Below the pieces are notes generated by a model. The model made no database searches. It was given only the letters and a program-made list of their open reading frames with translations, and was not told the origin of the DNA. From Candidatus Giovannonibacteria bacterium (GTDB lineage Bacteria; Patescibacteriota; Minisyncoccia; UBA11713; 2-01-FULL-45-33), in the NCBI GenBank assembly GCA_016432405.1, contig CP066687.1, positions 586,629 to 650,628 on the forward strand: a stretch of DNA of 64,000 nucleotides, written 5' to 3'. The position numbers were made by a program, and so were the translations under genes. This document shows positions 20,447 to 24,156 of the stretch, piece by piece (position 1 is the stretch's first letter; the number at the start of each line of letters is the position of its first letter).

Positions 20447-20494
20447 CGGAGGGTTTTTGAGTTTTAGAGAATTACTCTATGCGAGCGGTGTTTT
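20447..20494. repeat. island direct repeat A (cggagggtttttgagttttagagaattactctatgcgagcggtgtttt)
   Basis: Aligns with 24279-24331; includes the last codons (PLA*) of the 931-aa gene and a ccctcc/ggaggg hairpin. Confidence 0.7.
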
Positions 20495-23272
20495 AATCAT
20501 TGATATTATTGAATCAATTTGCTCTCTCAATGTTTTATCTCTAGTTATTCCATCACTGATTTTCTCAAAAGCATAAAGCACAGTCGTATGATCCAGCCCA
20601 AATATCCTTCCAATGGAAGGGAAAGATAAACCTATCATCGTTCGAATAAGATACATGGCGATTTGTCTTGCATGGGCAATTGTGCCTTTTCGTGTCCTTT
20701 TCTTTATTTCTACCAAGCTAAGATTGTAGAATTGAGCAACCGACGCAACAATTTTTTTAGCAGTGAAATTTATTTCTTTCTCTCTTTCTTTAATATAATC
20801 TCTTGGATCTTCATCAGAGTAATAGTACTCACCATATTTTTTAGCAAGAGCTTTGTTAACTATTTGGCGAACGCGCTCCCGAGTAATCTCAAATCTTTGC
20901 GCAATCTCTTCCAAAGTGTGCGGTCTTTGATCATTAAGACCAAATCGCATTTCAACCATTTGTTTTTCTCGGTCCTCCATTCCCTCAACAAGGTCTTTAT
21001 CGCCAAGAGTTTGTCCCTGTTTTGCTTCTTCAAGTTGTTTTTCTCGTCTTGTTTCCCATGCCAACGGCTCTTCCACAAAATGGTCATAAATTCCTGGCCC
21101 AACCTCAAACTTCTTTTGAGCAATGTATACAGGGATATCGATAGCAGGTCCGTAATTTTGTGGAATAGCACCTTTTTGATAAGCTTCCGGGATCATTGCT
21201 CCTAGCGATTCGCTTAAAATAAGCTCCGCCAAATATAGTTGCGCTTCACGAGATTTCTCTACATCGCGCTTTTGTGGATTATCCCCAAAATAATATCTGT
21301 TGATGGGGTGATTCGAGTTGATAAGTATAAAGCCCTGAGTGGGACTTCCTAGCATTGGGTCGTAAGTGGTCTGTAGATGTTTTGGCACCCCATCATCAAA
21401 GTCCCAATCCTTAAATTTACCAGTCGGGCCGGTTGGCGAAGGTTTGATGCGATCCTTAATATCTATCCGGCATTGCGCCGAATAATCCTCAAAATTTGCC
21501 TTAACAATACCAGATTCATCATTCTTTTTGCCCACAAAAGGCACTTCAATTTTTGCCACTTGACTTGTGCTACGCATTCGGCGCGGCACCACGACCCATC
21601 TGTATTTTAGGGCTATTGAGTTGTTGGAACTTGAAAGAGAGATTTTTTTGCCGATCTTTATAACATTCAAATCAACATAAAGATTCAATGTGCTTTCTCT
21701 ATTCGCTGTAGTTCTTATGTAATCTGGACTAAAAACAATACCGTTTTCTGGATACACTATCTCCTCGGACACAATAGAAACCACCACCGAAGCGCTACGT
21801 TTTCCACTTTTTGCTTCTAATGTATCGGCAGTCCTCGCATTCGCACCAGTAACAATGATGGTCTTCACGAGGATGTCATTGCTATCCTCCGGTGCGTCGT
21901 GGACCTCAATTGTAGTCGGCGAAAAACCTATTTTACCTCTTGAAGATTTAAGAGATATTTTAGAACTGGGCTTGATAATTCGGGTATCAATGAATAGTTG
22001 TAGGCCATAGCGCCTTCCTGCAGTGATAGTTATGTTACTCCTAGCAAACTCAATACCTCCAACAGGGCGCGCCTTTTTCTTTATACGGATAACGCCGTTT
22101 GTATCTTCCCCAGTAAGTTGAGCATACAACTTGTTAAGTTCTTCAAGGGCCTTACGGTGATTCTCTTTTGTTATTTCGGAAACACCCTCGTCGGACCTTC
22201 TACGTCTTTCTTCATTGAGAATTGGGTATAACCAATCTTTCACTTCTAAGGCAAGTTTTTTGTAGAAGTCATGTTGGGTATTAAATCCATCCCGAGAATC
22301 GGAAAGTATCGCTTCGGGATGTTTCGGATCATTGATTTTATTGAGAATGATTTCTCTTGCTCCAGTCAGTTTCATGAAGCCGAAAAATTTGTCTGCACCC
22401 GGTAAGCTATCCCAACCGAAAAATGTTTGGGCGTATACGGCTTCTTTATTATCATGAACCAACAAGCCGTTTTCTCTTTCGTCTCCGACGATTTGAAGCG
22501 GCGTAGAAGATTTGTACAGTTCAACATCAATTTTCACGGGGTTATATTTCTCGAATTGCAAAGTAAATTCCTTATGCTCAACCAAATCACCCTTCGGAAA
22601 TTGATATCTAATAACACTTTTTTTAGTGCCTTTCTGGTCCTTGTAAATTAACTGGACCGAGCGTCTATCACTTGAGTTGATAAGGCGAAGCATGAAGAAA
22701 ACACCCACCTTTTTTATTAAGTTGTCATAGTCGTGTATGGTGGTATTATCAAGTACAAATTCGGCAACCGTTCCATGTTTGCTGTTTATACCCCATTCCT
22801 TAGCTAGTTTTTCTGCTAGCTCTTTTTGTTTTTCAACACTAATAAATGGTCTTTCTTTTTTCCAGTAGAAGTTGCAAATGGAGGCTTCGCCGTCCTTGAC
22901 AGATTTTATTTTCCCCTCGCGGTGGTAGAAAAGGACATCCGAAATACCTTGGCCAAAAATTCCTCTCGAACTAAAGCCTTCATAGGCCCCGCTCTTTGCT
23001 GCTCCATATTCTTTAAATTTCTCCTCTAGTTCAGCGGTAGTCATTCCTTGGGCATGGTCTGTTATACGGACTAATCTTTTCGTCTTATCAATAAAAATAG
23101 TAATCGGGAACACCTCTCCGCCATCGTCTTGGCTCGATTCAATTATTTTCCTGTAGCTATCATCGGAATTGGTAATTGGTTCTGTTAGGGTTTTCAGCAA
23201 GCTTTTCCCGACAGCATCCGAAAATTGCCGTTTTATATACCGTGAAGCATATTGTACTGCGATTTCGGTCAT
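20477..23272 (-). CDS. multidomain protein: N-terminal GHKL-type ATPase, central unknown, sigma-70 region-4-like HTH, C-terminal DnaA domain-IV-like DNA-binding domain
   Basis: Motifs read in translation: EPITNSDDS (N-box-like), DHAQGM (G1-like), GIFGQGISD (G2-like); [101 protein letters not shown]. Confidence 0.6.
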   Translation of the reverse strand: [931 protein letters not shown]

Positions 23273-23278
23273 ATCAGT

Positions 23279-23935
23279 TTAAAAAAGTAGGTTGCTAAAC
23301 TTTTTCTCAAGCCAAGACAAAAATTCCAACACCTCTTTATCTTTTGTCGTTGTGGCAGAAACTTTAAGTCGTTTCAAGTGTTCAGCCAAAAGCTGCTTTG
23401 GCGTATATGGTGCAGCTTTCAAGAAAGCAAAAAATTCATAATTATTGACTTCCTCATTTGCGAACCACTTCTTAAAAGCTTCTGATACTCGTATTTCTCG
23501 TATATCATCACCGGGGGACTTTCCTCTTGATTTGCTAACTATAATGGGCTTGCGGTCCTTTCTCGGTAAAGGATTCTTCAGTGAACCGGAAACTTGTTTT
23601 GCCATTTCGCGTCCCAAGTCAGTCAGATGAAAGCCGTTTTCAATATTACCTGTTGCCCAATGTTTTCTCTTTTGGTCAGTCAAGCGCCGTAGTGCTTTAC
23701 TGATTCGGTTAGTATCTGGATATTGAATAAAGTTAGCCATTGAAAACTTTCTAGGAAACAATCTGAATAAACCGACAGCAATAAAATCAAAATAGAGGGG
23801 TATCTTCTTTCCTTCAAGCGCGTAAAGCGTATAAACCACTAGACGGTCTAAATCAAAACTATCGTAGTTCACGAAAGGAAAATGTTTTACCCCAAGCAAC
23901 ACCCTTTTTATATTTATACCGTTTTGATTTTTCAT
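23279..23935 (-). CDS. hypothetical protein (operon partner)
   Basis: 6-nt gap to downstream 931-aa gene; no recognised domain. Confidence 0.4.
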   Translation of the reverse strand: MKNQNGINIKRVLLGVKHFPFVNYDSFDLDRLVVYTLYALEGKKIPLYFDFIAVGLFRLFPRKFSMANFIQYPDTNRISKALRRLTDQKRKHWATGNIENGFHLTDLGREMAKQVSGSLKNPLPRKDRKPIIVSKSRGKSPGDDIREIRVSEAFKKWFANEEVNNYEFFAFLKAAPYTPKQLLAEHLKRLKVSATTTKDKEVLEFLSWLEKKFSNLLF

Positions 23936-24156
23936 AATTTAAATTCTTTATTTTTAGGAAAGTGAAATTTTGCTTTGGTCTCGCGGACTCGGCGCTCAAT
24001 TTCGGAAAATATTTTGTTCACCTCTTCTTCGGTGTATTCATACGCACTTCTGTTAGAACAATTACCTAAAACTTTAAGTCTTTGAAGGACTGAATTTGTT
24101 CTTTGCGTCCCTAAGCGCTTAAACCTTTCCCGTTTTTGCTCACGATTATTGTCCAT
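23932..24156 (-). CDS. hypothetical small basic protein (operon first gene)
   Basis: Start overlaps next gene by 4 nt; Lys/Arg-rich; DnaA-box-like tgtggataa in its upstream region. Confidence 0.35.
   Translation of the reverse strand: MDNNREQKRERFKRLGTQRTNSVLQRLKVLGNCSNRSAYEYTEEEVNKIFSEIERRVRETKAKFHFPKNKEFKL

Follow-up and report, generated by a model that had tools for sequence, protein, structure and literature searches.

GHKL ATPases are established members of restriction-modification-like and defence systems (PMC2292703, PMC9523054, PMC12137116). Those of the prokaryotic MORC/paraMORC type, linked to restriction-modification-like systems (Iyer, Abhiman & Aravind 2008, PMC2292703), were predicted in 2008 and have since been left almost untouched experimentally. 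We analysed a 64-kb stretch of DNA (the window) from a Candidatus Giovannonibacteria metagenome-assembled genome, which carries a cassette of three minus-strand open reading frames (ORFs) encoding proteins of 931, 218 (p218) and 74 (p74) amino acids (aa; Table 1). The 931-aa protein, annotated as 'hypothetical', joins a GHKL ATPase to a C-terminal tail of two helix-turn-helix (HTH) modules, a sigma-70 region 4 (sigma-4) and a DnaA domain IV (DnaA-IV). With roughly even confidence, we read the cassette as a new, self-contained GHKL/MORC-type three-gene DNA conflict module, serving defence or the control of foreign DNA like other systems that pair GHKL ATPases with restriction-modification components; in Patescibacteria its tail would read DNA in two parts, with autoregulation as the minimum role. 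It is a compact, widespread and previously unlisted example of its kind, with fixed partners and no obvious nuclease, and it adds a candidate conflict system to the bacteria of the candidate phyla radiation, whose defence repertoire is poorly known.

The cassette resembles the MORC/paraMORC systems in that its GHKL domain is followed by an S5-fold domain with a conserved basic residue, and the restriction-modification-linked theme of that group (PMC2292703) may recur through a DNA methyltransferase found in 17 of 38 related loci, though neither in the window nor beside most Patescibacteria copies. It differs from them in lacking a superfamily II helicase, which is absent from the related loci as well, and a recognised endonuclease partner; in having fixed winged-helix and 74-aa helical partners that are undescribed for MORC/paraMORC operons; in an ATPase sequence nearest to Hsp90-type N-domains, with a HATPase_c_3 score below the gathering score; and in the sigma-4 and DnaA-IV tail, which is not reported there. 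The mzaABCDE system (PMC9523054) likewise holds a sigma-70-type region 4 module and a GHKL ATPase within one conflict system. However, a full-length MzaA match is lacking here, the match of the region 4 part being local (50 residues; NCBIfam 52.9 bits against a cutoff of 800; PADLOC E-value 2e-10), and neither cassette partner matches PADLOC. The GHKL-Shedu protein VcSduA (PMC12137116) and other GHKL-fused defence effectors share with the 931-aa protein an N-terminal GHKL domain and a clamp-like middle, for which control of the C-terminal functional domain of a phage-defence protein has been proposed. VcSduA is nevertheless a single gene with a PD-(D/E)xK DUF4263 nuclease, whereas the cassette has no nuclease, C-terminal DNA-reading HTHs and two obligatory partner genes. 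No description of the cassette, its partners or the sigma-4/DnaA-IV fusion was found in the literature, family models, phage or plasmid records searched. The original prediction, made from the sequence of the locus, had held that the 931-aa protein and its partners belong to no described family, and Pfam, NCBIfam, PADLOC and PHROGs indeed matched only the HTH parts.

The three genes are tightly packed, with a 6-nt gap between the 931-aa and 218-aa genes and a 4-nt overlap between the 218-aa and 74-aa genes, and lie in a segment from 19 to 25 kb with a GC content of 0.37-0.42 against about 0.50 around it. ORF and GC analysis thus agreed with the earlier description of a three-gene operon on an AT-richer segment. 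That description had the fusion gene leading the operon; transcription runs 74, 218, 931, and the fusion gene comes last. An exhaustive profile search (1.84 billion entries) returned 734 clusters at 50% identity with E-values of at most 1e-30 and 1199 with E-values of at most 1e-10. The full architecture of about 930 aa accounts for some 60 clusters, all from Patescibacteria, and a few Saccharibacteria proteins retain sigma-4 alone. Most family members have no tail, and the HTH tail occurs only in Patescibacteria; tail-less relatives of about 715-800 aa were found in Bathyarchaeia, Methanolobus, Chloroflexota, Acidobacteriota, Planctomycetota, Verrucomicrobiota, Nitrospirota, Firmicutes, Bacteroidota and others. 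In 31 of 39 genome loci the gene directly upstream of the ATPase gene encodes a p218 homologue, and in 17 of the 39 that gene is in turn preceded by a p74 homologue. All 16 tail-bearing loci have the three genes, just as tightly coupled, and their surroundings are unrelated. Co-occurrence of the trio in other genomes, which had been proposed as a check, was therefore found. What is conserved is the cassette of three genes, to which one clade has added the HTH tail; the fusion, which the original prediction had taken as the key feature, is therefore not the defining one.

Neither p74 nor p218 matched Pfam, NCBIfam, PADLOC or PHROGs, and for their families no member matched Pfam and no PDB sequence relative was found. 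p218 shows the three-helix bundle and beta-hairpin wing of a winged helix, and p74 is marked by a C-terminal FKL and a loop of invariant pattern. Proteins of some 140 aa are encoded just upstream of p218 in several Acidobacteriota and Verrucomicrobiota cassettes (L029:3357-3767, L032:786-1144 and L033:362-790; between p74 and p218 in the latter two loci). Their terminal GWxLTxxG...A(K)D motif is similar to the p218 wing, and they may be paralogues of the p218 winged-helix domain.

In the 931-aa protein, the HATPase_c_3 match covers residues 30-139 and is sub-threshold in Pfam (20.7 bits against a gathering score of 25). Across 59 aligned family members, E31, N35, D72, G107, G109, D112 and T168 are nevertheless invariant, and G76 is invariant or nearly so; the G1 motif reads D-H-A-Q-G, its first Gly being replaced by an invariant Ala. 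GHKL motifs I-IV (the N-box E/N, G1, G2 GxxGxG and GT) are all present and could be aligned to those of Hsp90, and the protein shows the Bergerat alpha/beta sandwich fold. A profile of the tail-less core matched Hsp90/GRP94 N-domains on the ExxxNSxD and DxxxGM motifs; only these N-domain motifs match (E-value 2e-5, residues 11-91), and the protein differs from Hsp90/HtpG in having no HtpG or HSP90 match in Pfam or NCBIfam. Some relatives carry precomputed PF13589 matches. Because of the motif invariance and the Hsp90-profile match we assign residues 1 to about 333 to a GHKL domain with an S5-type transducer and, judged from these motifs, the weak GHKL match is real. Structure comparison aligned 280-299 residues with the MORC3 and MORC2 ATPase modules, and MORC and SMCHD1 are the closest structural relatives of the ATPase. 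R327, in a DSRDGF motif, is invariant and is likely to be the gamma-phosphate-sensing basic residue from the S5-type domain. No HisKA or DHp domain was found in the 931-aa protein, no fold assignment was obtained for the domain at residues ~617-750, and no nuclease or toxin domain was recognised in the cassette proteins.

The tail was recognised with confidence by Pfam, with Sigma70_r4 matching residues 764-811 (E-value 3e-13) and Bac_DnaA_C residues 839-905 (E-value 1e-22). The predicted four-part fusion is therefore real, its GHKL part on the invariance of the motifs among the 59 sequences; for the three domains that the prediction had named, the Pfam matches stood for the two HTH modules, and HATPase_c_3 stayed below its gathering score. 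The 30 tail-bearing proteins compared all keep R861, R869, D894, H895, T896 and T897, as well as the TRERVRQI helix of the sigma part. These DnaA-IV residues align with E. coli DnaA R399, R407, D433, H434, T435 and T436, and P885 aligns with P423, all of which we take to be DnaA-box contacts (1J1V); TRERVRQI is presumably the helix that reads the -35 element, as in sigma-4/-35 structures. The position of E. coli DnaA H439 is a Tyr, as it is in M. tuberculosis DnaA. The DnaA-IV part superposes on DnaA-DNA co-crystals at 1.2-1.6 Å with 31-37% identity. The protein thus resembles DnaA in its C-terminal 100 residues, which have the DnaA-IV fold with its box contacts, and in the consensus DnaA box of its promoter. 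It differs in lacking domains I-III, with no AAA+ Walker A/B motifs, and is not an initiator: Pfam found no AAA+ module, and NCBIfam DnaA (TIGR00362) scored 87.6 bits against a cutoff of 343.9, matching domain IV only (residues 824-926). Sigma70_r2 gave no match, leaving region 4 only, and RpoD-type NCBIfam scores were all far under their cutoffs. Because the AAA+ module and sigma region 2 are both absent, the 931-aa protein is, by its domain content, neither DnaA, as had been predicted, nor a sigma factor. One related locus (L036:8344-8903) matched the DnaA-IV part only. With four perfect DnaA boxes a short way downstream, it probably represents a true dnaA gene and its origin region and not a cassette.

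The character of the tail also bears on an improbable alternative, in which it would serve as a guard, with sigma-4 and DnaA-IV as baits mimicking phage-hijacked host proteins and binding of a phage protein triggering the ATPase. Phage hijackers of such host proteins include the anti-sigma factors AsiA and ORF67 and inhibitors of DnaA. In favour of a decoy, the sigma-4 part is nearest to region 4 of housekeeping sigma-A/RpoD, among others that of S. aureus in its co-crystal with phage G1 ORF67 (4g6d), and the validated mzaABCDE system has a sigma-like component alongside a GHKL ATPase (PMC9523054). However, there is nothing direct in support; the modules share only 31-45% identity with genuine DnaA and sigma proteins, too little for close mimicry of the host; and the fixed spacing of 8-10 nt between DnaA box and -35 hexamer described below is explained by DNA binding and is not needed by a decoy.

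The promoter region of the operon offers a matching site for the tail. On the minus strand upstream of p74 we found, in order, tRNA-Ile(TAT), a terminator hairpin, a perfect consensus DnaA box, 10 nt, a -35 hexamer, an imperfect palindrome, a second promoter-like site and the ATG (Table 1). This lends support, at the level of sequence, to the DnaA-box binding that had been suggested for the protein. A composite site of DnaA box, 8-10 nt and TTGACA occurs once in the 64 kb, at the cassette promoter only; this count is not significant alone (shuffle mean 0.275), and the site gains its weight because the same position recurs in other loci. Perfect boxes lie upstream of p74 in the window, L004, L124 and L125, and two near-perfect ones in L006; in these 5 of the 16 tail-bearing loci, all from one clade, the boxes have the same orientation and stand 8-10 nt upstream of the -35 element, itself conserved as TTGACA or TTGACT in most tail-bearing loci. 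A perfect DnaA box is missing from all 11 tail-less p74 loci (two have single one-mismatch sites), and about 0.002 per locus are expected by chance. Of the 16 tail-bearing promoters, 12 contain the half-site TATCCTTA/TAAGGATA (7 of them exactly), compared with 2 of the 11 tail-less promoters and a background of 0.17 per 150 nt. Three of the four half-site-free tail-bearing promoters (L004, L006 and L125) have a canonical or near-canonical DnaA box, so that 15 of the 16 carry a box or a half-site. The simplest reading is that the adjacent sigma-4 and DnaA-IV modules would bind the adjacent -35 hexamer and DnaA box, occluding the promoter. The palindrome could be read by the tail, its half-site resembling a DnaA box, or by p218. 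Tail-less lineages have different, lineage-specific palindromes at the same promoter position, which suggests a core-encoded autoregulator, most plausibly p218.

Table 1. Features of the three-gene cassette and its flanks in the window
Feature	Position	Strand	Remarks
931-aa protein, last cassette gene	20477..23272	-	
GHKL (Bergerat) ATPase + S5-type transducer, residues 1-333	22274..23272	-	catalytic E31, N35, D72, G107, G109, T168
Long helical (coiled-coil) hairpin, residues ~334-390	22103..22273	-	model secondary structure H335-360, H366-387
Two immunoglobulin-like beta-sandwich domains, residues ~400-606	21455..22075	-	
Family-specific C-terminal beta/helical domain, residues ~617-750 (INxxHPxN...YLAE)	21023..21424	-	all-phyla core ends here
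Sigma-70 region 4 HTH, residues ~759-815	20828..20998	-	TRERVRQI helix invariant in clade
DnaA domain IV, residues ~826-927	20492..20797	-	R861, R869, P885, D894-H895-T896-T897 retained
p218	23279..23935	-	winged helix ~29-120, disordered basic linker 121-140, helical bundle 141-217
p74, two-helix protein, first cassette gene	23932..24156	-	RFxRLAxxR...LGNxSNxxxYxY...FKL pattern
Second promoter-like site TTGTGA-17-TATAAT	24164..24192	-	putative; ends 7 nt before ATG; 10/12 consensus matches
Imperfect palindrome ATAAGGGT-ggac-TATCCTTAT	24198..24218	-	candidate operator; spans spacer and -10
Sigma-70-type promoter P1	24201..24229	-	TTGACT 24229-24224, 17 nt, TATCCT 24206-24201; promoter scan
Perfect consensus DnaA box TTATCCACA	24240..24248	-	10 nt upstream of -35, 84 nt upstream of p74 ATG
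tRNA-Ile(TAT)	24339..24412	-	immediately upstream of cassette; ARAGORN; Rfam tRNA 72.5 bits
41-nt direct repeat, upstream copy	24281..24321	.	runs into tRNA terminator hairpin 24256-24296; repeat search
41-nt direct repeat, downstream copy	20448..20488	.	runs into hairpin 20413-20464

Three more perfect DnaA boxes lie in the window, at 2642-2650, 10990-10998 and 44685-44693, none of them followed 8-10 nt later by a hexamer resembling a -35 element; the box at 10990 lies where an ORF begins, beside a divergent gene pair. The window thus holds four perfect boxes against 0.21 expected, and this excess speaks for a rather unlikely alternative, a regulator of replication or chromosome maintenance, in which the tail brings the MORC-like clamp to DnaA boxes at the origin and promoters of the host or of an integrated element. 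There it would control initiation or compact DNA, in a housekeeping or element-maintenance role and not in immunity. The intact DnaA-box contacts of DnaA-IV fit such a role, as do the Patescibacteria copies that lack a methyltransferase and sit among housekeeping genes, and the nearest structural relatives, MORC and SMCHD1, both compact or silence DNA (PMC2292703, PMC8277788). Several observations argue the other way: the cassette is sporadic in Patescibacteria, and its location changes from genome to genome; the copy in the window is an insert of low GC content between direct repeats beside a tRNA; the core family works without the tail, often with a methyltransferase; and the other three boxes of the window have no adjacent -35-like hexamer.

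The neighbourhoods of the relatives point circumstantially towards DNA conflict. Within 3.5 kb, 17 of the 38 genome loci have a DNA methyltransferase, which is of the N6/N4 type (PF01555, E-values 1e-25 to 1e-50). In at least nine loci from five phyla (L008, L009, L014, L025-L027, L029, L031 and L037) its gene adjoins the 3' end of the ATPase gene, usually in convergent orientation. An apparent mutual exclusion of p74 and the methyltransferase (Fisher p = 0.001) was rejected, as a single Patescibacteria clade drives the signal and L032 has both genes. Some cassettes open with HARE-HTH, Hjc-like or extra winged-helix genes in place of p74, and variable first genes of this kind were seen in methyltransferase-linked cassettes (genes L008:8931-9302, L034:8787-9260 and L023:8551-9237). 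The HARE-HTH match has an E-value of 3e-4 for L034, and L023 was assigned by sequence similarity only; the Hjc-type resolvase-fold nuclease (E-value 1e-7, one locus) is the only nuclease-like component in any cassette seen. These neighbourhoods also bear on a long-shot alternative, an ordinary transcription regulator in which the GHKL domain would be the ligand- or ATP-sensing input or kinase of a large one-component regulator acting on its own operon and perhaps on some further genes, and the methyltransferase neighbours of distant relatives would be incidental. The two HTH modules of the tail, the winged-helix partner and the operator-like elements in the promoter are what such a regulator would have. 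However, the core family does without the HTH tail, the GHKL and S5 domains are of the MORC/MutL/Hsp90 type and not those of a histidine kinase, with DNA-acting clamps as best structural matches, and a methyltransferase that abuts the ATPase gene in so many loci and phyla is unlikely to be incidental.

A link to mobile elements and known defence genes was seen at a few loci. A tail-less cassette (72, 209 and 732 aa) adjoins a large serine recombinase and an Xre-type repressor (L129:1476-10622, also L130-L132); this type, followed by three co-oriented uncharacterised genes (349, 222 and 232 aa; no PADLOC match), was present on 20 contigs. Directly downstream of one tail-bearing cassette, a 990-aa gene (L126:6888-9860) gave PADLOC matches to Ppl (E-value 3e-20), mad3 and AriA and is a known defence-type, Ppl-like ATPase. 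Among the variable neighbours PADLOC returned only this one Ppl-like gene and one weak PDC-M58A match. A search with three family members in annotated phages, plasmids, E. coli genomes and IMG/VR found no relatives; the absence from phage records and IMG/VR therefore places the cassette on the host or element side.

In the mechanism that we favour for the conflict module, p74, p218 and the ATPase would be made from one transcript of tightly coupled genes, a coupling that is kept across phyla. The invariant catalytic residues and the fold suggest ATP binding and hydrolysis and, as in MORC, MutL and Hsp90, closure of the ATPase into a dimeric clamp. p218, a winged-helix DNA binder by its fold, would probably read the lineage-specific palindromic operators and possibly target DNA, and the N6/N4 methyltransferase neighbours, seen in relatives only, suggest that self and foreign DNA are told apart by methylation. 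The Patescibacteria ATPase appears to have gained a sigma-4 and DnaA-IV tail that keeps the DNA-reading residues of both parents. This tail most likely reads a DnaA box and a -35 hexamer 8-10 bp later as one bipartite site. Since such a site lies in the operon's own promoter, the tail would at least autoregulate the operon by occluding the -35 element, and it may in addition bring the clamp to DNA resembling origins or promoters. Because no nuclease was recognised, we infer that the effector step is either non-nucleolytic, through clamping, silencing or a block of replication or transcription, or relies on a recruited host nuclease. With two well-understood DNA-reading modules and a matching promoter site, the Patescibacteria form allows a direct test of how a bacterial MORC-like clamp is targeted to DNA.

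Support for a role in conflict or defence is circumstantial and comes from the methyltransferase neighbours, the patchy distribution over bacteria and archaea, the copy in an integrated element and the Ppl-like neighbour. A number of points weigh against the conflict module. No PADLOC model matches the core or partners, and a nuclease or toxin domain was not recognised. The methyltransferase is absent from the window copy and most Patescibacteria copies, which leaves self/non-self discrimination unexplained there. Patescibacteria copies mostly neighbour housekeeping genes, and enrichment in defence islands is not shown. At the promoter, a canonical DnaA box occurs in only 5 of the 16 tail-bearing loci, p218 and not the tail could bind the palindrome, host DnaA itself could bind the box and, as the tail-bearing loci are all one clade, their contrast with tail-less loci is not phylogenetically independent. 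Of the defence or abortive-infection module first suggested for the operon, the defence part thus keeps circumstantial support from methyltransferase, distribution and element or Ppl-like neighbours, weakened by the window copy without a methyltransferase, and the abortive-infection part fell away, no abortive-infection toxin or nuclease having been found. The DnaA box and the -35 hexamer are the two most universal control elements of bacterial replicons. A bolder form of the conflict reading, quite unlikely in our view, is a nuclease-free, MORC-like immune or silencing system, in which an ATP-driven clamp loaded on DNA by winged-helix partners is steered, in Patescibacteria, by the tail to DnaA box plus -35 and shuts the origins and promoters of invaders (or, abortively, those of the cell itself), with methylation marking self in the versions linked to a methyltransferase. 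If true, such a nuclease-free clamp system would be a prokaryotic counterpart of eukaryotic MORC silencing.

The setting of the window copy recalls an insertion. A 41-nt direct repeat brackets the cassette exactly, its copies being 34/41 identical against 26/41 in the best shuffle, and no third copy occurs in the 64-kb window. The upstream copy starts 17 nt after tRNA-Ile(TAT), a possible insertion landmark, and the downstream copy overlaps the 931-aa ORF and supplies its last four codons and stop; both copies enter terminator-like hairpins. Together with the low GC content, the repeat pair looks like an att-like insertion footprint. The window cassette has no integrase, and flanking direct repeats were not found at seven other Patescibacteria loci. 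An empty-site allele was sought via the neighbouring 228-aa protein (15 contigs), and the cassette was present at 8 of the 8 places listed that extend past this protein; mobility is unproven because near-identical strains, among the places listed, all carry the cassette. In L002 the cassette (8852-12995) is flanked by tRNA-Arg(CCG) and tRNA-Arg(GCG), two genes 83% identical.

The 228-aa ORF upstream of the cassette (24390-25076, minus strand) shares 23 nt with the 5' part of the tRNA-Ile gene and encodes an N-terminal HTH_23 domain (E-value 8e-7) followed by a LAGLIDADG-like GGLFLYLGEGG stretch without Pfam support; it is retained together with the cassette in all near-identical strains among the places listed. 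The same low-GC segment holds an extracytoplasmic function-type sigma factor (19698-20240, plus strand; Sigma70_r2 and r4_2) and a 163-aa Cys-rich ORF (19162-19653, minus strand) that matches PHROG families without known function (E-value 1.5e-10), neither of which recurs beside the cassette in other genomes. A second low-GC stretch (35000-42700; 0.36-0.43) begins right after tRNA-Leu(CAA) at 35048-35131, contains a 982-aa ORF (39680-42628, minus strand) and may be another island.

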